From UHGV virus genome UHGV-0144531: a DNA stretch of 33,245 nucleotides; one strand, written 5' to 3'. The DNA is from a virus. Below, one piece after another: positions 8,538 through 19,146 of this stretch. Under the pieces are notes generated by a model that saw only the letters and a list, made by a program, of their open reading frames with translations, ran no database searches and was not told the origin of the DNA. Both the position numbers and the translations under genes were made by a program. Within the stretch, counting starts at the first letter, position 1; every line of letters begins with the position of its first letter.

Positions 8538-8568
8538 AGTTTACGGAATGGCGTCATTGCGTGATGAA

Positions 8569-8637
8569 GATCACATAATGGCGCTTTACGCCTTGTTTGT
8601 GTGTATCCATTTTGTATACTTCAAGCAAACAAAATGC
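8569..8637. promoter_or_regulatory. Recurrent motif cluster: GATCACATAA plus CCATTTTGTATA and AACAAAATGC
   Basis: Intergenic, upstream of the ninG operon; gatcacataa 8569-8578, ccattttgtata 8607-8618, aacaaaatgc 8628-8637. Confidence 0.45.
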
Positions 8638-8696
8638 TCTTTAAAAATCCGGTAACGCTGAAATGCGTAGAAATCACCTGAAAAGGAGAGAGCATT

Positions 8697-8873
8697 ATGT
8701 CTTTTAATGATTACCAATGGCATGACGACTATGAACGAGAAAGCGTCATGCGTGCAATGTGCAATGTATGCAGCACGAAGAAAGGAGGCTGTAACGAGTG
8801 CGACGAATGCTTAGAACATTGGCTAAGGGCAGGGCACGCCGAAAGGCTGAACGAAACAGAGAATCAAAAATAA
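8697..8873 (+). CDS. Small Cys-rich protein (58 aa), putative zinc ribbon
   Basis: CxxC...CxxCxxC pattern (CNVCSTKKGGCNECDEC); strong RBS aaaaggagagagcattATG. Confidence 0.4.
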   Translation: MSFNDYQWHDDYERESVMRAMCNVCSTKKGGCNECDECLEHWLRAGHAERLNETENQK

Positions 8874-9897: not shown

Positions 9898-10076
9898 AAA
9901 ACGAAGTTAAAGATCTGCAAATAGATATTCAGCGCGATGAGCATGATTTAGCTACAGTCCGACAAATCCAGGCTTTTCACATGCGAGAATTACTTGCACT
10001 GAAAGAGTTTGAAAGAAAGCTAGTGCAATCAATATCTGATCGCAAAAGACTGGTTGCACGTTACGGGGGTAAATAA
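9894..10076 (+). CDS. Hypothetical protein (60 aa)
   Basis: ORF translationally coupled between rusA and Q. Confidence 0.45.
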   Translation: MKNEVKDLQIDIQRDEHDLATVRQIQAFHMRELLALKEFERKLVQSISDRKRLVARYGGK

Positions 10077-10798
10077 TGAATTTGGAATCTATTCTTAAAT
10101 TCCACCTCCCAAAATCACCGCGTTTGTCAGATGAAAGCCGGGGCACGTCCCCAGACTCGCTTAATACTACTGATGCACTAACCGCAGCAGGTATGGCGCA
10201 ATCGCGCGTAGAGCTTGGTTATAGCGCTTTTTTAGGGAAGATGGAATTATCGCAAGCCGAAAAACACAGGGCCGTAGTTTTGCTTACAGAGCGTTTAAGA
10301 GCTATGGCAAAAGATTACGAATACGTCATGGAGCTGGACGAGGACAAACGCAATGATCTTATTATTCTTGTTGCCGTTTTCGCGTTTCGGGATTACTGCC
10401 AGAGTGCCGCGACAGAAAAAACTTGTATGGATTGCGGCGGATATAAATTTACGTTTGACGACTACGGAGAAAAACACCTTTGCAAAAAATGCAAGGGGCA
10501 TGGAAAAGTTCGCAATCATTGTAAACGATGCAAAGGGCGCGGCGAGATACCGGATAAAGCAGCCAGTGAAGCAGCGGAAATGCCAGTGTTCAAAACGTGC
10601 CAGCATTGCGGCGGGCGCGGGTACTCGCGTTTCCCTGTAGATCTTGTCCGGCGTGCGGTTAATCAGCTTGTATTTCCGGTAAGCCGATCAACGTGGTGGA
10701 AGAAATACCGTGCTTTCTATGAAGACGCCATTGCTGAATTGTTCAAAGAAGAGGCGCAGGCTGATAACGAAATTAAACGAGTGACACGGGGTGAATAA
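10076..10798 (+). CDS. Q: Lambda-type late antiterminator Q
   Basis: N-terminus (LESILKFHLPKSPRLSD..AAGMAQS), zinc-finger cysteines and C-terminus (HKEE..ADNEI) align with lambda Q as I recall it. Confidence 0.9.
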   Translation: MNLESILKFHLPKSPRLSDESRGTSPDSLNTTDALTAAGMAQSRVELGYSAFLGKMELSQAEKHRAVVLLTERLRAMAKDYEYVMELDEDKRNDLIILVAVFAFRDYCQSAATEKTCMDCGGYKFTFDDYGEKHLCKKCKGHGKVRNHCKRCKGRGEIPDKAASEAAEMPVFKTCQHCGGRGYSRFPVDLVRRAVNQLVFPVSRSTWWKKYRAFYEDAIAELFKEEAQADNEIKRVTRGE

Positions 10799-10998
10799 TG
10801 AAACAACAAGAGATAAACATGAAAAAAGTGATTATTCTTTTTGAAGATTATAACGGTGATGCATGGTGCAAGTATTTAAGCGGTGTTGAAGCACGGTTGG
10901 CGCTAACGTTTATTGCCGCACTGGATGAAGGGGATTTTAACGCTATTCCGGTTAAGCCAGTAGAAATCTATCGTCGCGAGGTGAAGGATGAAGCCTAA
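10798..10998 (+). CDS. Hypothetical protein (66 aa)
   Basis: ORF; ATG overlaps the Q stop (TAATG). Confidence 0.45.
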   Translation: MKQQEINMKKVIILFEDYNGDAWCKYLSGVEARLALTFIAALDEGDFNAIPVKPVEIYRREVKDEA

Positions 10999-11257
10999 AT
11001 TAAAAGAACATCTATTCGCAAAGCTGGTTAATAATCTGACATTAACGGCGCGTGTGTGCAGTGATACGCAACAATTAGGGTCGTGGATAGTAAGGGATTT
11101 AAGAAAATACATCGAGCCAGGCGGGCCAGGTGACGAGATGACTATGGACAAGGCCATCAAGCGCCGTTCGGCTGATTGGTCAGTAAGTAACACAGGATTA
11201 ACCGGATACATCGAAGGCTACAACGACTGCTTACAGGATCATAGCGATGGCAAGTAA
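10988..11257 (+). CDS. Hypothetical protein (89 aa)
   Basis: ORF in co-directional string. Confidence 0.45.
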   Translation: MKPKLKEHLFAKLVNNLTLTARVCSDTQQLGSWIVRDLRKYIEPGGPGDEMTMDKAIKRRSADWSVSNTGLTGYIEGYNDCLQDHSDGK

Positions 11258-11555
11258 AGACCTACACTTGAACCTGAAAGGGGAATATTTCCACGCCATC
11301 CGGGCGGGAAAGAAGGTGGAGGAATACCGACTTTATAATGAATACTGGCGTAAACGCCTGGAGGGGCGGGAATATGAACGCCTGATCATTAAGCTGTGGT
11401 ATCCAGCCAGCCACGAAGCGCACCGGAACATAAACCTGCCTTATTTCGGGTACGAAGTAAAAACTATCACGCATCCATTATTCGGCCCTGATCCTGTTAA
11501 GGTATTCGCAATTAAATGTGATGTGAATTGGATGTTAAGGTGGGGGGAGCAATGA
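11247..11555 (+). CDS. Hypothetical protein, possibly ASCH/PUA-like
   Basis: N-terminal LHLNLKGEYFHAIRAGKKVEEYR resembles ASCH/DUF3850-type cores; from memory only. Confidence 0.4.
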   Translation: MASKDLHLNLKGEYFHAIRAGKKVEEYRLYNEYWRKRLEGREYERLIIKLWYPASHEAHRNINLPYFGYEVKTITHPLFGPDPVKVFAIKCDVNWMLRWGEQ

Positions 11556-11767
11556 AAAAAGCTGGCCTATCAATTAGCCGTGTATTGTGCGGTGACGAAA
11601 ACGAGATCCGCATAGAAATTAAATTTAGCACAGGTAAAGAGATAATCCTTTACACGACACCTGAAAACCTGACGCTGGCGCTTACTGGTAAATCTGAAAC
11701 GCCGTGCGACGTCCGGTTGCGCAATATTGAAATTAAGGAATTAAGGAAGGTGAAAGATGAAAAGTAG
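11552..11767 (+). CDS. Hypothetical protein (71 aa)
   Basis: ATG 11552 preceded by GGGGGGAG RBS; track start 11528 would overlap upstream gene. Confidence 0.4.
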   Translation: MKKAGLSISRVLCGDENEIRIEIKFSTGKEIILYTTPENLTLALTGKSETPCDVRLRNIEIKELRKVKDEK

Positions 11768-11957
11768 AATGAAACGCATGGTAAGAGCTTACGATAAGGC
11801 TTTAATGGTTTTTGATGATTTGCGACGCAATAAGCGTGAGCGTCGTAAATGGGCGCGTTTATTCGCGAAAGAATGGCACGAAGACGATGCGACAATCGAC
11901 TGTCAAAAAGACGCTGACGAATTAGCTGACGATAACGTTTATTATATGATGTGGTGA
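11757..11957 (+). CDS. Hypothetical protein (66 aa)
   Basis: ORF in co-directional string. Confidence 0.4.
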   Translation: MKSRMKRMVRAYDKALMVFDDLRRNKRERRKWARLFAKEWHEDDATIDCQKDADELADDNVYYMMW

Positions 11958-11961
11958 CAAC

Positions 11962-12327
11962 ATGCAAATAATCATTGATTACCTTTGCCATGCAGCAAAT
12001 ACACTTTTCGGTTTTTATCAACAACCTTTCCTTAAAGAGTGGGATTCGATGTTAAACGATATCCTCGACAAAGGATTAATAATGGAGGTTGACGAGCTTA
12101 CAATCAAAATTAATTATGAAGGTGAAGAATATCAAATTTGGGTGGGTAATAGATGGTATTCATACGGTCATATTTATTCAATTGGTGGTAAGTTCATTAA
12201 AAGAAACCAGGAATTCAGACCGCGCTTCCGCACAATGCGCCGACTACATAACCTGCATATGAATCTATTTGAAGACCAGGAAGCACGGGAACTATTCAAG
12301 ATCTACGGAGATAAATCATGGAGCTAA
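11962..12327 (+). CDS. Hypothetical protein (121 aa)
   Basis: ORF; AT-rich by eye. Confidence 0.45.
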   Translation: MQIIIDYLCHAANTLFGFYQQPFLKEWDSMLNDILDKGLIMEVDELTIKINYEGEEYQIWVGNRWYSYGHIYSIGGKFIKRNQEFRPRFRTMRRLHNLHMNLFEDQEARELFKIYGDKSWS

Positions 12328-12548
12328 AAATCTGGCAGGCTATCGACGTAGTTGATAATGAGTTAAGTATGTTTGCCACTGACGGAAAGCGCGCGGTGAT
12401 CGCCACATGGACGCGTAACCATGATGATATCGCTTTTCGTCGCAAGGCTGCGGAGTGGCTTTTCTCTGATGGCGGCTACACGATGAACATCGCCCAGCTT
12501 GCCAGAATGAAGGATGAAAAGCTGGTAGACAGCTACACAACTGCATAG
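12318..12548 (+). CDS. Hypothetical protein (76 aa)
   Basis: ORF in co-directional string. Confidence 0.45.
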   Translation: MELKIWQAIDVVDNELSMFATDGKRAVIATWTRNHDDIAFRRKAAEWLFSDGGYTMNIAQLARMKDEKLVDSYTTA

Positions 12549-12558
12549 CGGGGTAAAT

Positions 12559-12792
12559 ATGCGTATCTATGAACACAAGCGGGATAAAACCCGCTTTTTT
12601 GTTCGTGCTGGCGTGGCGTACCAGTATCACGAATGTGGATATATTGAGGCGCTTGCTTACGACCTGGATTTCGAACAAGAAAAAGAATGGTTTGACTTTA
12701 AGATTTACCGGAAGCGCAAGCCAACGCGCGACGAGCGCCACGCTATCCGTGATTTTCTAATCAGCATTGACCGCTGGGAGGCAGAAGAATGA
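12559..12792 (+). CDS. Hypothetical protein (77 aa)
   Basis: ORF in co-directional string. Confidence 0.45.
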   Translation: MRIYEHKRDKTRFFVRAGVAYQYHECGYIEALAYDLDFEQEKEWFDFKIYRKRKPTRDERHAIRDFLISIDRWEAEE

Positions 12793-13082
12793 GAACGAAG
12801 AAAGTGGCAGATCAGAAAGCGTTAGTTATCGCTACAACGGACGTATCGTTATTCACGAAGGGCGAAGAAATAGATCTTAAATTGCTTTTCGGTATGTTTG
12901 AGCCACACGAAAAGCCGTGGTTTGTTCATGAAGACAAACAAGGCAATATGCGCGTAGTAGTGCCGGACAAAAACAGCGACATATTTTTTGCTATTCCAGA
13001 CCCGTTGCATGACGGAGAAATGCTGGCGGTATTGCTTATCGCTGATGCTGTTACTTACAAGGGAAAGAAATATGAAAGTTAA
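12789..13082 (+). CDS. Hypothetical protein (97 aa)
   Basis: ORF in co-directional string. Confidence 0.45.
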   Translation: MRTKKVADQKALVIATTDVSLFTKGEEIDLKLLFGMFEPHEKPWFVHEDKQGNMRVVVPDKNSDIFFAIPDPLHDGEMLAVLLIADAVTYKGKKYES

Positions 13083-13299
13083 ATTCTTGCACGATCACGG
13101 CTACCCGTCATTGAAACAGGTTGTTGGTAAGGTCGTTAATGTCGTTCATAGCGATGAGATTACTTGCATGATTAATGGTGCTGATCTCATTGCCGCTGGT
13201 GCTGATGACCATTACATAAATCCGGCATGGTCGTATACGTTCAGCCTGGGCGACTTCGTTGGCGATAAGGGACGCGGGCTGGAAGTAGTCGAGGGTTAA
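13072..13299 (+). CDS. Hypothetical protein (75 aa)
   Basis: ATG 13072 (MKVKFLHDHG); the longer track ORF from 12988 overlaps the upstream gene. Confidence 0.4.
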   Translation: MKVKFLHDHGYPSLKQVVGKVVNVVHSDEITCMINGADLIAAGADDHYINPAWSYTFSLGDFVGDKGRGLEVVEG

Positions 13300-13303
13300 T
13301 ATT

Positions 13304-13552
13304 ATGGACGTTTACGAGGATGTTTGCCTGGCACCTTCATCTTATAGCTTTTATTTTCTGATAAATGGAAAGGCTTATAGATGCGATTCTGACGGGGTGA
13401 GAGAAGAAAAGCTGTTTTGCACTAAAGGATACCTGGATGATTTGGTTTTTGCCGGGATATTTCGTAAACGCCCGGCTAACCTGGAAGAAGAAATGCTGAT
13501 CGAGGTAATTAAAAATGAAAATCAAGGTAAGTTATTTCCGGGCGAAAGATAA
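13304..13552 (+). CDS. Hypothetical protein (82 aa)
   Basis: ORF in co-directional string. Confidence 0.4.
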   Translation: MDVYEDVCLAPSSYSFYFLINGKAYRCDSDGVREEKLFCTKGYLDDLVFAGIFRKRPANLEEEMLIEVIKNENQGKLFPGER

Positions 13553-13766
13553 GGCAACTGGAAAGCGGATGGCGATCCTGGTTAACGAGGCAGGATATAT
13601 GTTTGTCCTGTACCCGTGGTGCATAGCTAGCCATAACGATTATTATCGCCGTCACGCTGCGCGGAGTGCGGTAGGGATGAAGGGTTGGCAACCTCGCGAC
13701 ATGGAAAACTATTGTGAATGGAAATTAGTGGCAAAATACACGGTCGATTATAAAGGGGTTTTCTGA
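13515..13766 (+). CDS. Hypothetical protein (83 aa)
   Basis: ORF in co-directional string. Confidence 0.4.
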   Translation: MKIKVSYFRAKDKATGKRMAILVNEAGYMFVLYPWCIASHNDYYRRHAARSAVGMKGWQPRDMENYCEWKLVAKYTVDYKGVF

Positions 13767-13978
13767 TGCAAGTTAAATGCTCATACTCAAGCAATGACAG
13801 TGTTTTCACGATTGGGAGTATTTATGACGTTCACATCGTTTATGGCAATGAAGCACACACAATGAGTAATTGCCTTGCCTTGATTGATAATCATGACGAA
13901 ATATGGGTATTCAGGCCGAGCTATGAAGGCGGTGAAATATCCGGTGTAGGTTTTGCTGCCAGCTTTGAACGTTATTAA
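13766..13978 (+). CDS. Small protein, paralog family member A (70 aa)
   Basis: Shares C.YS...F..G.IY.V and D..G..W.F motifs with the next three ORFs. Confidence 0.45.
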   Translation: MQVKCSYSSNDSVFTIGSIYDVHIVYGNEAHTMSNCLALIDNHDEIWVFRPSYEGGEISGVGFAASFERY

Positions 13979-13988
13979 AGGGGCAACA

Positions 13989-14246
13989 ATGAAACATTTA
14001 TATTTTGAGGTATTGCAGACGCGCGACCGCAATATTTTTGAAGAAGGGAAGATCTATTGCGGCGTTCAACTCCACGGCGCACCGGGCGGTGATGGTGCAA
14101 TGGCGATAACTGGCGATGATGATAAAGTTTATTTCGCTTATGTTAGCCATATCAATAACGCCGCTGGTTTGTATATTTATCGCATAGTGCATGATTTCCG
14201 TGAGATCGCGGAGTTTTGCGCCCGCGAAGGCAGTAAACCGGAATAA
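13989..14246 (+). CDS. Small protein, paralog family member B (85 aa)
   Basis: ATG 13989 with AAAGGGG RBS; FEEGKIYCGV and GDDDKVYFAY motifs. Confidence 0.45.
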   Translation: MKHLYFEVLQTRDRNIFEEGKIYCGVQLHGAPGGDGAMAITGDDDKVYFAYVSHINNAAGLYIYRIVHDFREIAEFCAREGSKPE

Positions 14247-14256
14247 GTGAGGTGCT

Positions 14257-14496
14257 ATGAATCGGAAACATAGATACCAGTGCACATACTCACGATGCAG
14301 CGCGTTTTTTAAGAATGGCAAGATCTACGAGGTTGACGCGGCATTGGTTGACGCAAAGGATCAGGAATATATTCATGCCATTACTGACGACCAGGGGCAG
14401 TTATGGCGATTTTATAAGATGGGTTGTGGCACGGCGCTTGTTTATGCGCGTGCTGGTGGTGGTGCTTTTGCTGCGTTTTCGTATGTAGGGGTATGA
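14257..14496 (+). CDS. Small protein, paralog family member C (79 aa)
   Basis: CTYSRCSAFFKNGKIYEVDA and TDDQGQLWRFY motifs. Confidence 0.45.
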   Translation: MNRKHRYQCTYSRCSAFFKNGKIYEVDAALVDAKDQEYIHAITDDQGQLWRFYKMGCGTALVYARAGGGAFAAFSYVGV

Positions 14497-14717
14497 AAAT
14501 GATTTTAACGTGTAACGAATCGAAATTGGGCTGTTTTGAGGAAGGCGTACAGTACACGGCTGAAAAACCGATGGGATTGTCTCCTAAATTTCCGTTTATC
14601 GTCGTGACTGACACTTACGGTCACTTATGGTATGCAGGGCCGCTAGGCGGTATTGGTCGTTATGTTGTCCGTAGTTCGGATGGGGCGATGAAGGTTACTT
14701 TTACGGAAGAAGCATAA
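14493..14717 (+). CDS. Small protein, paralog family member D (74 aa)
   Basis: ATG 14493 with AGGGG RBS; LTCNESKLGCFEEGVQYTAE and TDTYGHLWYAG motifs. Confidence 0.45.
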   Translation: MKMILTCNESKLGCFEEGVQYTAEKPMGLSPKFPFIVVTDTYGHLWYAGPLGGIGRYVVRSSDGAMKVTFTEEA

Positions 14718-14777
14718 ATGTGATCTACCCTTCAAAGTTTACAAAATGGCATTGTTCTGGTGGCGCCATTTTGTTAT
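14714..14777. promoter_or_regulatory. Palindromic element TTTACAAAATGG-N16-CCATTTTGTTAT with adjacent GATCACATTT (reverse orientation)
   Basis: Intergenic; aaatgtgatc 14716-14725; tttacaaaatgg 14738-14749; ccattttgttat 14766-14777; TATAAA-like -10 inside the right arm. Confidence 0.5.
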
Positions 14778-14815
14778 AAAGAAGCTGAAGAGAGAACGAT
14801 GCGGAGGGTAGAAAA

Positions 14816-15088
14816 ATGAAACGCTGGATTAACGAAGAAACAAAAGCCCGCTTCAATGCAATTTGGGATCTGATTGAAAAAGAGGACGGCGTTTCTAGTC
14901 CCTACCTGAACAATCTTGAGTTCCACTATGTAGAAGCGATGAACGCAGAGCATGACCACCAAGTCGGTGCTGATGAATTCGCCAAAAAATACGGCTTCGA
15001 TGATGCAAACCATATGATTAACAACGTGGTGATGCAGGCAGAGGAAGACTACGAATGCAAATCACTTGAATTCGCACGTATGGCATAA
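14816..15088 (+). CDS. Hypothetical protein (90 aa)
   Basis: First ORF downstream of the palindromic element. Confidence 0.45.
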   Translation: MKRWINEETKARFNAIWDLIEKEDGVSSPYLNNLEFHYVEAMNAEHDHQVGADEFAKKYGFDDANHMINNVVMQAEEDYECKSLEFARMA

Positions 15089-15098
15089 GGGGGAAACC

Positions 15099-15239
15099 AT
15101 GAACGCTAACGCTAAATATCCGGCCTGGGTTTTCGAACTGTACGCAAGATACTTTGAATTACTGGCACAAGGTGAAGAAGCATTAAGCATTGACGAGTAC
15201 GCGGAGTGCTTAGGGTTTAAAGGAGGCGAAGAAGCATAA
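15099..15239 (+). CDS. Small hypothetical protein (46 aa)
   Basis: ATG with AAGGGGG RBS; below ORF-track cutoff. Confidence 0.3.
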   Translation: MNANAKYPAWVFELYARYFELLAQGEEALSIDEYAECLGFKGGEEA

Positions 15240-15282
15240 AACACGGGGCAGGATGGCCCCATCAAATCAGAAGGGTGTAATC

Positions 15283-15582
15283 ATGAAAAGCGCTAAATTT
15301 ATTGCTTGCTGTTTTGTTGAAGTTCCTAACGATGATGTTTTCTGTAATTATGAATTTAAAGACAGCTTAGGCAGATCTCACATTGTTGTTGGCAAACGTG
15401 GTGACTGGTTATATATCACTGATGGAGACAGGATCTTCACTAAAAACCAGTTGTTAATAATAAAGTCAAAAAATGATGAAATACAGGTCGGTATTATGGG
15501 GATCATAAGTTATCACGCCAGTTTATTGTTAAAACACGATGTGGTAAATAAAGCGCGTAGCTTACCTGGTGCTGAATTTTAA
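15283..15582 (+). CDS. Hypothetical protein (99 aa)
   Basis: ATG 15283 with AAGGGTG RBS; visibly AT-rich coding sequence. Confidence 0.45.
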   Translation: MKSAKFIACCFVEVPNDDVFCNYEFKDSLGRSHIVVGKRGDWLYITDGDRIFTKNQLLIIKSKNDEIQVGIMGIISYHASLLLKHDVVNKARSLPGAEF

Positions 15583-15605
15583 TTCCTTACGAAGGAGAAT
15601 AATCA

Positions 15606-15929
15606 ATGTCTAAATTTATCAGTGTTAAAGTTTTCCGTGGATCTTTTCCAGAAGATAAAGAAATTGGACAATTCGCAGGTAAACGCGGCGCATGTTTCCG
15701 TGTGGCTACTGAAGACGACGCGCACGTTAAACGCTTCCACGTATCTGAACCGCCTTTTGACGCAGACCATCTTGAAGACCTGGATAGAATTAAAAGCCTA
15801 GTTTTTGCCTATCTGATGTTCCAGGGTATCGCTGATATGGAAGTGGAATTGCTTGGCGCTGAACTGGTTGCAGAATACAAAATGACTGAAGCAGAAAACA
15901 GAGGGGTTGAAATTGAGCGCATCAAATAA
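15606..15929 (+). CDS. Hypothetical acidic protein (107 aa)
   Basis: ORF with AAGGAG RBS; Asp/Glu-rich. Confidence 0.45.
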   Translation: MSKFISVKVFRGSFPEDKEIGQFAGKRGACFRVATEDDAHVKRFHVSEPPFDADHLEDLDRIKSLVFAYLMFQGIADMEVELLGAELVAEYKMTEAENRGVEIERIK

Positions 15930-16164
15930 GCTGTATAAAGTCAGATGTAAACGCGAATACCCTGGCTTTACGATTGGTTGCGAATATCTGGGCCATATTG
16001 GGTACGGCCCTTTCGGTGAGTTGGGAATGAATACGATTGACGACGACGGCGACAGCAGGACGCTCGATCTTGATACGGATGACTTCGAATATATCCCTCC
16101 AGTTACTTACCGTGCCGTAGATGATTTCCTGGCTGAACAAGAAGATGATGAAGAGGATGATTAA
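15907..16164 (+). CDS. Small protein with highly acidic C-terminal half (85 aa)
   Basis: C-terminal 45 residues roughly 40 percent Asp/Glu, ending DDFLAEQEDDEEDD. Confidence 0.45.
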   Translation: MKLSASNKLYKVRCKREYPGFTIGCEYLGHIGYGPFGELGMNTIDDDGDSRTLDLDTDDFEYIPPVTYRAVDDFLAEQEDDEEDD

Positions 16165-16166
16165 CT

Positions 16167-16307
16167 ATGGATGACGAATACGTTAACAATTTTATTGTTA
16201 TGTTTCTTAGTGAGAACTGGCGCATGTTTGAACATTATTGTTTTGAGCGCGGGGAAAATGCTGAAGAAATCTATCAATATTTAGGCGGGGAGAAAGAGGA
16301 TGATTGA
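16167..16307 (+). CDS. Small hypothetical protein (46 aa)
   Basis: ATG immediately after upstream stop; below ORF-track cutoff. Confidence 0.3.
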   Translation: MDDEYVNNFIVMFLSENWRMFEHYCFERGENAEEIYQYLGGEKEDD

Positions 16308-16500
16308 ATGTCTTATCTTTGCTGTATTTCTCCTTTATATCGCTGGCGCTATCCTGATGTCTTGTTTCATCAAATGTAACGATCTCGATCGTGGTGGCCT
16401 TGAGATTCCTTTCTGGCCTGTAGCGGTGTTTATCGCTTTCTTCGGTGCAACGCTAGTGCAGATTAAGCGAGCCATTAAGGAGCGTAAAAATGGGAAATAG
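16300..16500 (+). CDS. Small membrane protein (66 aa, 2 TM helices)
   Basis: Two hydrophobic segments (LIFAVFLLYIAGAILMSCFI; FWPVAVFIAFFGATLV) and basic C-terminus. Confidence 0.4.
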   Translation: MIECLIFAVFLLYIAGAILMSCFIKCNDLDRGGLEIPFWPVAVFIAFFGATLVQIKRAIKERKNGK

Positions 16501-16714
16501 CGACCATCAATATGACGGCGTTTATCAGTCATTGGTGTCACGCGCTTATTATCGCCTTGAAGGTGAACACGTAATGATGCGATCACGCCAGTTTGAACCG
16601 TGGCATGAAACGGTTTTACCTGTGACAGCGAAAGAAGTTATCACGATGTTTAATCACGGACATTGGAGCAAGATTGGCGATATTAAGTTCAGGATGTTTA
16701 AAGAGGGCGGTTAA
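16490..16714 (+). CDS. Hypothetical protein (74 aa)
   Basis: ORF in co-directional string. Confidence 0.4.
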   Translation: MGNSDHQYDGVYQSLVSRAYYRLEGEHVMMRSRQFEPWHETVLPVTAKEVITMFNHGHWSKIGDIKFRMFKEGG

Positions 16715-16897
16715 ATGATTGAAGATGGTATATACGCCGTGAACCTCATTGATGAAATGTTTTACCGCGTGGAGGGTAATGATATTCGTATCAGTATCGA
16801 TGGTGGCGAGTGGAAAGAGCCATTCATGGATATGACGCGGGAAATAATTGAAATCATGCTTTATAACGGCGACGTGGTGAAGGTTAGCGACCTGTGA
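16715..16897 (+). CDS. Hypothetical protein (60 aa)
   Basis: ORF in co-directional string. Confidence 0.4.
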   Translation: MIEDGIYAVNLIDEMFYRVEGNDIRISIDGGEWKEPFMDMTREIIEIMLYNGDVVKVSDL

Positions 16898-17070
16898 ACG
16901 AGATCGAAGACGGCATCTATTTGCATAAGGTATTTAACATCGTCTATTTACTTAAAGGTAATAAGGTGATGATAAGACCTGATGACGATCCACATTGGGA
17001 ATCAAGCGACATGGATCGGTGGCATATGCAAATGTTGTTTGATAATGGCCTGATATACAAAACTGCGTAA
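16894..17070 (+). CDS. Hypothetical protein (58 aa, GTG start)
   Basis: GTG overlapping upstream stop; shows the same EDGIY / RISIDGGEW-like pattern as 16715-16897. Confidence 0.25.
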   Translation: MNEIEDGIYLHKVFNIVYLLKGNKVMIRPDDDPHWESSDMDRWHMQMLFDNGLIYKTA

Positions 17071-17077
17071 GCCGTAT

Positions 17078-17106
17078 TTGTAGAGCGTAAACAAACGGAT
17101 TAAAAT
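17078..17106 (+). promoter_or_regulatory. Sigma70-like promoter, candidate late promoter (PR'-like)
   Basis: -35 TTGTAG (17078-17083), 17-bp spacer, -10 TAAAAT (17101-17106); a terminator lies about 30 nt downstream and the lysis cassette follows. Confidence 0.45.
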
Positions 17107-17134
17107 ATTTCCTAACAATGCGAAATTGTAATTA

Positions 17135-17157
17135 CCCGGCCCCCGCGCCGGGTTTTT
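17135..17157 (+). terminator. Rho-independent terminator (tR'-like) upstream of the holin gene
   Basis: cccggc-ccccgc-gccggg hairpin followed by ttttt. Confidence 0.6.
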
Positions 17158-17177
17158 GCTTTGTTGGAGGTAAATCT

Positions 17178-17378
17178 ATGTTCGACAGAATACGGGAGGC
17201 GTGCGCGTATGTGACTGGGGCCGTAACTGCTTTTTTCGGCGCGATAACCATCAATGACATTGCCGTCTTTGTGGGTATCTTATCAACCGTAGGCACATTT
17301 GCCGTTAATTATTACTTCAAATCACAGGAGAACAAGCGGGCGCAAGAGGAACACGACGCGCGAATGGGGAATAAGTAA
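17178..17378 (+). CDS. Holin (class II / pinholin-like, 66 aa)
   Basis: ATG 17178 with GGAGG RBS; two hydrophobic helices and charged C-terminus (YYFKSQENKRAQEE) like phage 21-type S; directly precedes the endolysin. Confidence 0.7.
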   Translation: MFDRIREACAYVTGAVTAFFGAITINDIAVFVGILSTVGTFAVNYYFKSQENKRAQEEHDARMGNK

Positions 17379-18603: not shown

Positions 18604-19146
18604 ATGGCTAAGGCTAAAGGCATTAAGTTGCCTCACTTCAAGATCCCGCTTTTTGAGCATACCACTGTTTTCTTTTGCCCGACCCGCGAGATGTTCTATG
18701 AATTTTGCGAAAAGGCAGGAATTCCGATTGAACCTGATTTCGAGTTGGCTGGAGGATTAACGCTTACTTGCACTGGCGAGAATGGTGGTAACTTCTACGT
18801 GATCGCAGTATTCAACAATGAGTTGGGAACGCTGGTCCATGAATGCGCCCACACTACATTCCACGTTTTAAGTGATGTAGGCGTCGTGGCTACCACGGAT
18901 CCTACCCATCCGGCGAATGAGACTTACGCTTACATGGTAGACCGTATCTTCGATGCGTTTTTCCCTATCATAGCAGAATCAAACGAAGCACAGGTTGCAG
19001 CAATGCAGGCGGCAGAAGTCGTCGATCAGGCGCTGGAACAGGCAGAACAGCCGAAGGAAGAGGAAAAACCCGCGAAGAAAGGCAAACGTAAGCCCAAAGC
19101 AAAAGAAGCGTATGTGCCGCGCGTAATGAGCTTTAAACGAGGCTGA
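18604..19146 (+). CDS. Hypothetical protein with HExxH motif and Lys-rich C-terminal tail (180 aa)
   Basis: GTLVHECAHTTFH with Glu about 22 residues downstream (gluzincin-like spacing); tail EEEKPAKKGKRKPKAKE; GGAG RBS sits in the loop of a 7-bp hairpin (cagaata/tattctg). Confidence 0.55.
   Translation: MAKAKGIKLPHFKIPLFEHTTVFFCPTREMFYEFCEKAGIPIEPDFELAGGLTLTCTGENGGNFYVIAVFNNELGTLVHECAHTTFHVLSDVGVVATTDPTHPANETYAYMVDRIFDAFFPIIAESNEAQVAAMQAAEVVDQALEQAEQPKEEEKPAKKGKRKPKAKEAYVPRVMSFKRG

Follow-up and report, generated by a model that had tools for sequence, protein, structure and literature searches.

In phage lambda, the nin region, with ren and ninA to ninI between P and Q, consists of small, tightly packed and mostly dispensable open reading frames (ORFs) that occupy the far end of the N-antiterminated pR operon and vary among relatives. 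The Shiga toxin (Stx)-converting lambdoid phages carry kilobases of cargo, namely tRNAs, stx and other morons, between Q and the lysis genes. The seven GenBank phages mEp044, mEp010, MagusPhagus, mEp554, mEp013, mEp021 and mEp515 belong to the mEpimmI group of Nus-dependent non-lambdoid temperate coliphages, for which the region between Q and the lysis genes was not analysed beyond its virion protein (Negrete-Mendez et al. 2025, PMC11893012). The present analysis concerns this region in the virus genome UHGV-0144531, whose whole stretch of 33,245 nucleotides (nt) is called the window in what follows. Here, 26 small genes, named g1-g26, fill positions 10798-17070 between the gene of the antiterminator Q and the lysis genes. 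On present evidence they probably form a post-Q accessory array of a mEp021-like phage, located where the rightward delayed-early operon ends, far from its promoter, and coding for a mosaic set of non-structural products that act on the host or its defences.

The 26 ORFs, of 46-121 amino acids (aa), are all on the + strand and follow each other as an unbroken chain, with base 10798 common to the stop codon of Q and the start codon of g1. Overlaps are found at 14 of the 26 junctions, from Q/g1 through g25/g26, and most of the remaining spacings measure 0-23 nt, so that the block contains only one larger gap, of 98 nt (14718-14815). The g1-g26 ORFs are genes rather than chance ORFs because all 26 are under purifying selection (ratios of non-synonymous to synonymous polymorphism, pN/pS, of 0.05-0.53 against orthologues in related phages), 22 of the 26 proteins match PHROG families, all of unknown function, and the seven longest minus-strand ORFs give no credible PHROG match. 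For the orthologous genes of an E. coli prophage, NCBI calls the same starts as those used here. An earlier note on this DNA, made from the sequence alone, had described some 25-30 tightly packed small ORFs after a Q stop codon that overlaps the next start, none of them assignable and some of them acidic or paralogous. All of this is borne out, with four products (g18, g21, g22 and g25) at an isoelectric point (pI) of 4.1. Its mention of small membrane proteins holds for g23, the sole clear case among g1-g26, and the AT-richness that it saw is mild, the GC content of the block being 43.7% as compared with 46.1% for the window, with g6, g19 and g22 at 36-37%.

The window phage is assigned to the mEpimmI (mEp021-like) group, as a temperate E. 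coli siphophage. The block is 84-87% identical at the nucleotide level to the seven GenBank phages over 27-63% of its length, nucleotide identity of the window to mEp044, mEp010 and MagusPhagus is about 85%, and the gene order NinG-RusA-Q...holin-lysozyme-spanin-terminase is common to the window and the mEp021-type genomes. The locus is present as a prophage in 35 of 5426 complete E. coli genomes, in which identity over the block does not go beyond about 92%, a value not exceeded by any record in three annotated collections. An IMG/VR search with Q yielded 45 further contigs (50-57 kb) with Q proteins 82-99% identical, and the same search of a genome-contig collection gave no confirmed relative; the loci compared here come solely from IMG/VR and the annotated collections. 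Small genes are found between Q and the holin gene in all 46 loci having both anchors, and the idea of the earlier note that the block had been inserted here is, therefore, wrong. The distance from Q to the holin gene varies from 2.0 kb with 8 genes in mEp021 to 6.8 kb with 28 genes, the window (6.38 kb) being near the top of the range, and 29 coding sequences are annotated in this interval in the E. coli KKa019 prophage.

The comparison of gene content across related phages, which the earlier note had proposed, covered 41 distinct blocks of 8-28 genes, whose 861 ORFs fall into 52 clusters, 33 of them recurrent; the clusters that do not recur look mostly like fragments. Four genes (g7, g10, g11 and g12) are present in all 41 blocks; next come g6 and g8 (40 each), g5 (39), g1 (38) and g23 (37). 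Every one of the 26 window families recurs, in at least 12 blocks, and none is unique to the window. Along a single relative, amino acid identity to the window jumps from gene to gene, between about 50-60% and 100%, which reads as the signature of cassette-level mosaicism. The array is, thus, best described as a conserved backbone (g5-g8 and g10-g12) with swappable cassettes, and the block as a fixed, lineage-wide accessory locus of mosaic content. The mEp021 genes gp38-gp45, and the matching regions of mEp010, mEp013, mEp044, mEp515, mEp554 and MagusPhagus, occupy the same locus, with the same flanks and the same promoter-terminator pair as in the window, and share the orthologous backbone genes g7, g8, g10, g11 and g12. 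They differ in size and composition: in mEp021, 8 genes take up 2.0 kb and the paralogue family A discussed below is absent, whereas the window has 26 in 6.3 kb, including six candidate members of family A and three of family B.

The position of the block with respect to the late promoter follows from the properties of Q and of the DNA preceding the lysis genes. Q (10076-10798, + strand, 240 aa) is of the lambda type (PF03589, E 1e-29; phrog_127) and, by its matches to the Q-lambda structures 7UBM (E 1e-39) and 4MO1 (E 9e-26), is taken as a genuine homologue of Q-lambda; the 7UBM_Q match consists of two stretches that span nearly the whole protein and overlap on the lambda chain at an insertion point. 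Residues ~122-148 form a second CxxC...CxxC zinc-ribbon segment inserted with respect to Q-lambda (DnaJ_CXXCXGXG, E 1e-5). The 107 nt that separate g26 from the holin gene contain, in order, TTGTAG, a 17-nt spacer, TAAAAT, ATTTCCT, AACAAT and a terminator. The predicted late promoter, of the PR' type, extends from 17078 to 17119 on the + strand (-35 element TTGTAG at 17078-17083, -10 element TAAAAT at 17101-17106, AACAAT at 17114-17119). For comparison, lambda PR' reads TTGACT, 17 nt, TAAATT, TGACTC (6 nt) and AACGAT, so that TAAAAT, 7 nt and AACAAT correspond here to TAAATT, 6 nt and AACGAT there. In lambda, AACGAT at +1 to +6 is a -10-like element that pauses the sigma70-RNA polymerase so that Q loads. 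The layout of the window element, a putative sigma70 promoter with a -10-like pause-type element, is that of lambda PR', and pausing is predicted. The promoter spacer AAACAAACGGAT, between -35 and -10, is conserved and is a candidate Q-binding element; its conserved form is AAACAAAC(A/G)GAT, and the -35 region occurs in two variants. From the spacer motif AAACAAAC to the ribosome-binding site of the holin gene (17089-17177) the DNA is near invariant in all 46 loci, with variable coding DNA just upstream, making this the most conserved non-coding part of the region across the relatives.

The promoter is followed by an intrinsic terminator equivalent to tR' (17134-17163, + strand), made of a 7-bp stem with 6 GC pairs (17134-17153) and a T run, and the mEp021 GenBank record places its terminator TERM_5 at the equivalent position. 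The promoter-terminator pair that the earlier note had noticed ahead of the lysis genes is, thus, confirmed at 17078-17163. The terminator begins ~21 nt past the predicted late start, as compared with about +194 for lambda tR', and a transcript made without Q would be ~45 nt long (17114-17158), with a 5-bp 5' hairpin and the terminator, which invites comparison with the PR'-derived small RNA of Stx phages. The first late gene codes for a holin of the HP1 family (17178-17378, + strand; PF16080, E 1.6e-14), and an endolysin and a spanin-like ORF follow it. Between this lysis cassette and the terminase genes, a 180-aa ORF (18604-19146) with a C-terminal tail rich in lysine matches phrog_1365, of unknown function; its mEp021 equivalent is the hypothetical gene gp49.

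From the Q gene to its late promoter there are 6.28 kb, occupied by 26 genes, as compared with 43 nt in lambda, and the g1-g26 block therefore lies upstream of the late promoter. To place it within the Q-dependent late operon, a late promoter would have to follow Q directly, as in lambda. The contiguity of the block with the lysis genes and the association of the g11 orthologue with mEp021 virions speak for such an arrangement, which is nonetheless very improbable, as Q leaves no non-coding space at all before g1 (its stop codon overlaps the g1 start), a PR'-like motif occurs only once in the window (17089-17122), and the stretch that contains it is the most conserved non-coding DNA of the region with a strong terminator after it. 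A late promoter just downstream of Q was looked for, and the only PR'-like element found is that at 17078-17119. Delayed-early transcription of the block is the best reading because this sole element, with its terminator, stands at the far end of the block and not beside Q.

Several features are consistent with this reading. A boxA-like TGCTCTTTA of a nutR2-type site (8634-8642, + strand) lies upstream of NinG-RusA-Q and of the block; it equals the boxA consensus, and the intergenic region around it (8538-8700) is almost identical to its mEp021 and mEp044 counterparts. Gp17, the N-like protein of mEp021, is reported to act at three nut sites, the third of which (nutR2) is downstream of the cytosine methyltransferase gene. 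From NinG, RusA, a 60-aa ORF and Q through g1-g26 the genes are all on one strand and without a break. Promoter-like sites between 9800 and 18800 are not above chance (11 observed, 18.1 +/- 3.8 expected). By taking into account this anatomy and antitermination in mEp021, the block is most likely the distal end of an N-like-antiterminated, delayed-early rightward operon. The earlier note had claimed early or delayed-early transcription rather than transcription from the late promoter; the position upstream of the PR'-like promoter is borne out, and the timing is only probably right.

Two hairpins within the block bear on its transcription. The first, a terminator-like hairpin followed by T6 (AAGCGGG-ATAAAA-CCCGCTT; 12577-12602, + strand), is located inside g8, at codons 7-15. 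Its synonymous sites are invariant in 31 distinct relatives in which the flanking codons vary, which suggests a selected RNA or DNA element within the coding sequence. The second, also terminator-like and conserved, occupies part of the 98-nt gap (14741-14774, + strand; 14-bp stem ACAAAATGGCAYTG...CAGTGCCATTTTGT) and is found in about 29 of the 46 loci with different cassettes (g17 or g18) directly downstream. The motif TTTACAAAATGGC of its left arm recurs upstream of nutR2, at 8540-8552. If they act as terminators, both hairpins would need an antiterminated polymerase to be passed. When the 98-nt gap is folded at minimum free energy, the ribosome-binding site of g17 is paired (z = -3); a translational switch at g17 is not proposed because the upstream arm of this fold is not conserved in the relatives.

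A weak promoter-like motif of the extended -10 kind (14752-14780; TTGTTC, 17 nt, TGtTATAAA) overlaps with the gap hairpin. This conserved intergenic element, a GC content slightly below the genome average and the differences in gene content among strains are also what one would cite for lysogenic-conversion morons, i.e. for some or all of the genes being expressed from the repressed prophage through their own promoters to the benefit of the host. This interpretation is quite improbable: the block contains no autonomous promoter-terminator units but co-oriented genes that overlap or abut within an operon, promoter-like sites do not exceed chance, and the known exclusion and conversion genes of the mEpimmI group (Lpp and Ipe) lie elsewhere.

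In the delayed-early reading, the N-like protein would act on RNA polymerase that has started at the early rightward promoter and reached the nutR2-type site (boxA at 8634), and would modify it there. The modified polymerase would then pass NinG, RusA and Q and enter g1-g26 without interruption, crossing the hairpins at 12577 and 14741. The lambda-type Q would act 6.3 kb away from its own gene at the PR'-like promoter, where AACAAT at about +1 to +6 should pause the sigma70-RNA polymerase, and the polymerase would in this way be able to cross the terminator at 17134 into the holin and late genes.

As to function, the g1-g26 products are most likely non-structural accessory proteins of mid-infection that act on the host or its defences. 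One alternative concerns the backbone. It consists of g6 (11962-12327, 121 aa, 37% GC, phrog_16975, 40/41 blocks, pN/pS 0.12), g7 (12318-12548, 76 aa, phrog_38280, 41/41, 0.16), g8 (12559-12792, 77 aa, phrog_30442, 40/41, 0.05), g10 (13072-13299, 75 aa, phrog_5009, 41/41, 0.13), g11 (13304-13552, 82 aa, 41/41, 0.33) and g12 (13515-13766, 83 aa, basic with a pI of 9.7, phrog_38609, 41/41, 0.21), to which g5 may be added. The orthologue of g11 is mEp021 gp41, which is annotated as 'virion structural protein', was detected by mass spectrometry in CsCl-purified virions and is reported to be conserved in 48 of 48 genomes of the group (PMC11893012). These six genes could have a core role in replication, packaging or the virion, only the flanking cassettes being accessory. 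Their presence in 40-41 of 41 blocks, which include the minimal 8-gene block of mEp021, the strong purifying selection acting on them (pN/pS 0.05-0.21 apart from g11), the virion association of gp41 and the synonymously invariant hairpin inside g8 all point in that direction. The absence of any resemblance of a backbone protein to a known structural or replication protein, and a position outside the structural module, leave this a possible, somewhat doubtful explanation. That these might be conserved core genes with known roles had been considered by the earlier note as well; g7, g10, g11 and g12 are indeed universal, and no known role was found for them.

The searches for function of single proteins were largely negative. 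None of g1-g26 has a significant Pfam match or an NCBIfam match; none of the 26 proteins matches the PADLOC defence-system models at E <= 0.1; phmmer with the 26 proteins concatenated gave no match to PDB sequences at E <= 10; and Rfam (E <= 1) and tRNA scans of the region returned nothing credible. Relatives outside the mEpimmI group were found by tblastn in 50,697 phage records for only five genes (g3, g4, g5, g6 and g17). In a collection of 5.8 billion proteins, 47 clusters were returned for g11, 86 for family A and 115 for family B, and the organism-named matches were from E. coli or mEp phages, except for two unclassified Caudoviricetes metagenome entries.

Two paralogue families occur in the block, and their links were established by searches with hidden Markov models (HMMs) and by targeted hhalign comparisons. 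Family B comprises g24 (16490-16714, 74 aa), g25 (16715-16897, 60 aa, pI 4.1) and g26 (16894-17070, 58 aa), all matching phrog_15318, with hhalign probabilities of 96-97% (97% for g24-g25 and 96% for g25-g26). The firm core of family A is the pair formed by g13 (13766-13978, 70 aa, phrog_31142) and its reference member g15 (14257-14496, 79 aa), at 96%. The occurrence of paralogues that the earlier note had claimed is, thus, confirmed in both families. Weaker links bring in g14 (13989-14246, 85 aa; 38% with g15), which has the F-x-x-G motif, g9 (12789-13082, 97 aa, phrog_33175, 23/41 blocks; 31% with g13) and g16 (14499-14717, 72 aa; 21% with g13, HMM E 1e-3), as well as a cassette absent from the window (f29, 53%). 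The g21 product (15913-16164, 83 aa, pI 4.1, with an acidic C-terminal tail; phrog_25234, 36/41 blocks) is placed in family A, as a possible member, by its motifs F-x-x-G and DDDG. The motifs of the family are F-x-x-G-x-(I)-Y and, after ~20 residues, D-D-x-G-x-x-W-x-F; in an alignment of 85 family A sequences, F18 and G21 (g15 numbering) are at least 90% conserved. The copies per block range from 0 in mEp021 to 6 and rise with block size, so that the array appears to grow largely by addition of paralogues of two E. coli-phage-specific families, much of the expansion being due to family A.

A model of g15, computed from the 85-sequence alignment without templates, is a six-stranded all-beta barrel with a pLDDT (predicted local distance difference test) of 76. 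It superposes on Gp54 of phage Bas11 (PDB 9AXB, released in 2024), its only strong structural match. In BFVD, the g15 model also matches many uncharacterised proteins of 63-105 aa, mostly from T1-like and related enterobacterial siphophages, with TM-scores of 0.6-0.8 and marginal E-values. Gp54(Bas11) is a 66-aa, non-essential protein of unknown function that directly binds and activates the fused toxin-antitoxin CapRel(SJ46); its discoverers suggest that Gp54 may be an inhibitor of a further defence system (Zhang et al., Nature 2024, PMC11578894). For the comparison, Gp54 (bas11_0054, MZ501085.1 39780-39980, minus strand) was used along with eight homologues, in a 9-sequence profile. The short segment aligned between family A and Gp54 always contains F-x-x-G, with F21 and G24 of Gp54 opposite F18 and G21 of g15, and G24D in Gp54 is a mutation that escapes CapRel (PMC11578894). 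Family B is kept apart because its comparison with family A and with Gp54 gave no significant similarity. Run exhaustively as an HMM search in a library of 1.8 billion proteins, the family A profile produced 37 matches, among which the very long ones with multiple matching stretches were rejected as homologues, as were the designed 'Cake' propellers in the PDB; the weak matches to beta-propeller blades read as motif resemblance (F-x-x-G ... D-G-x-l-y) rather than homology.

The Gp54-type fold hints at a plausible anti-defence or host-takeover role for the flexible genes. A stronger version would make the whole block a dedicated anti-defence island, in which the small genes mostly serve to inhibit E. 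coli immunity or to escape it and the paralogues are diversified inhibitors or decoys. The genes are small, hypervariable, shuffled as cassettes, under selection and, as far as the searches reached, confined to E. coli, several of the products have a strongly acidic character, and family A is predicted to share its fold with a non-essential, CapRel-sensed protein suggested to inhibit another defence. As set against this, six or seven of the genes are universal or nearly so, which host-strain-dependent counter-defence genes usually are not, and no aca-type regulator is present, so that a dedicated island is judged unlikely. A more specific proposal is that the array is a counter-defence arsenal, in which the Gp54-fold paralogues bind immune sensors of the CapRel type as inhibitors or decoys, the copy number tracks an arms race, and g11 is packaged and injected like T4 IPI*; it is an improbable one.

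The reading of g1-g26 as a delayed-early array of non-structural, host- or defence-acting genes has to be set against several observations that weigh on the other side. No homologue of a known anti-defence, host-takeover or defence protein was found through Pfam, PHROG, NCBIfam, PADLOC or the PDB, with no dedicated anti-defence library among the resources searched. The presence of the g11 orthologue in mEp021 virions is easier to reconcile with a structural or late role than with that of an early accessory protein. Instead of a terminator, the conserved stretch at 14741-14780 may be an internal promoter, as its hairpin overlaps the extended -10-like motif. Of the six members counted in family A, some are joined by weak links of 21-38%. 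Comparison of family A with Gp54 by hhalign, with the single sequence or with the 9-sequence profile, gave probabilities of 0.2-3%, which are not significant, and 9AXB is not retrieved by the family A profile at E <= 10. The relation is placed at the level of the predicted fold only, because the profile-profile probability is at most 3%, and it carries the moderate confidence of the model (pLDDT 76). Even close homologues of Gp54 do not activate CapRel; for the Bas10 homologue, three substitutions suffice to abolish activation (PMC11578894).

Among the remaining genes, those preceding the backbone are g1 (10798-10998, 66 aa, acidic; phrog_35000, 38/41 blocks, pN/pS 0.53), g2 (10988-11257, 89 aa; phrog_29262, 36/41, 0.23), g3 (11247-11555, 102 aa; phrog_625), g4 (11552-11767, 71 aa, a flexible cassette; phrog_1222, 15/41) and g5 (11757-11957, 66 aa; phrog_8758, 39/41, 0.09). 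The g3 product, which gives the one hint of the Pfam scan, is weakly similar to ASCH, a family with a PUA-type RNA-binding fold; the match to Pfam ASCH PF04266 (E 0.0099, 17.0 bits, below the cutoff of 21.2) covers only the N-terminal 26 residues, and its orthologues are named 'ASCH domain-containing' or 'RNA-binding protein' by the NCBI Prokaryotic Genome Annotation Pipeline (PGAP). Relatives of g3 are found in Stx, Salmonella, Pantoea, Acidovorax and Ralstonia phages, and those of g4 in Stx phages and other siphophages. The arginine-rich stretch of g5, RRNKRERRKWAR, may recall the RNA-binding arginine-rich motifs of N proteins.

After the gap follow g17 (14816-15088, 90 aa, an acidic, flexible cassette; phrog_7287, 15/41 blocks), g18 (15099-15239, 46 aa, pI 4.1; phrog_22232, 27/41, pN/pS 0.10), g19 (15253-15582, alternative start 15283, 109 aa, 36% GC, without a PHROG match; 30/41, 0.27), g20 (15606-15929, 107 aa; phrog_23107, 36/41, 0.41), g22 (16167-16307, 46 aa, pI 4.1; phrog_15754, 16/41) and g23 (16300-16500, 66 aa, grand average of hydropathy, GRAVY, 0.87; phrog_10061, 37/41). 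Virulent myophages of the rV5 type, of ~135 kb (Murica, nomo, slur16 and others), code for hypothetical proteins that are 61-76% identical to g17, which points to the exchange of a small gene between temperate and virulent coliphages. With its pair of hydrophobic helices and its strongly basic C-terminal tail, the g23 product is laid out like a holin. Its gene precedes that of the true holin by 700 bp and stands before the late promoter, on its early side; the Pfam scan of g23 gave no holin match. The g19 gene and an alternative cassette absent from the window (24/41 blocks) begin with the same five codons, MAPSN, which places a recombination junction at the start of the ORF or within it, and a hairpin GGGGC...GCCCC is found at the same junction (window 15253-15282). 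Larger cargo is present in the blocks of some relatives (L014 ORF 14, L017 ORFs 12-13, L005 ORF 2 and others), including a 239-aa protein similar to PAPS (phosphoadenosine phosphosulfate) reductase, split in L017, and a 115-aa CxxC zinc-ribbon ORF found in 17 of 41 blocks and also in E. coli KKa019.

When set beside known systems, a variable accessory-gene region in a published phage group is an ordinary phage feature. The T4 plasticity regions and Mu-like accessory loci are likewise at fixed positions, with small ORFs of unknown function that are present or absent, cassette-like, in close relatives; they share no genes with the array described here, which separates a regulator from its promoter within an antitermination circuit of the lambda style. 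The kind of feature and the phage group being known, what is new is the size and composition of this array and the paralogue family with the predicted Gp54-type fold. Gp54 is a single gene of a virulent T1-like Drexlerviridae phage, whereas family A has up to six divergent copies in a temperate mEpimmI phage. A rare fold known from one CapRel trigger of a virulent T1-like phage would, thus, extend to a multi-copy family of temperate phages, which suggests that the fold may be widespread as an accessory module of phages and, plausibly, one that bacterial immune systems repeatedly target or are antagonised by. Being fixed and well delimited, with 8 to 29 genes in the prophages of less than 1% of complete E. 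coli genomes, the locus also makes a handy natural panel for screening small proteins against defence systems.

In the Stx-converting phages, as here, several kb separate Q from the lysis genes, but their cargo lies downstream of PR'-tR' and is Q-dependent and late, whereas the present block is upstream of PR'; only g3 and g4 have homologues in Stx phages, where they are located in the early-left region near Ea22. With the lambda nin region the array shares the run of small packed ORFs at what is probably the distal end of an antiterminated rightward operon. The window phage has NinG and RusA homologues just upstream of Q, where mEp021 annotates NinF too, and no nin family of Pfam or PHROG, nor any lambda nin homologue, was found among g1-g26 by the searches run. 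Unlike the nin genes, the array continues past Q, so that Q is 6.3 kb from its target promoter rather than 43 nt as in lambda. If a lambda-type Q does work over such an interval, late promoters should not be placed by adjacency to Q when prophages are annotated. By analogy, the block would functionally resemble a lambda nin region extended past Q.

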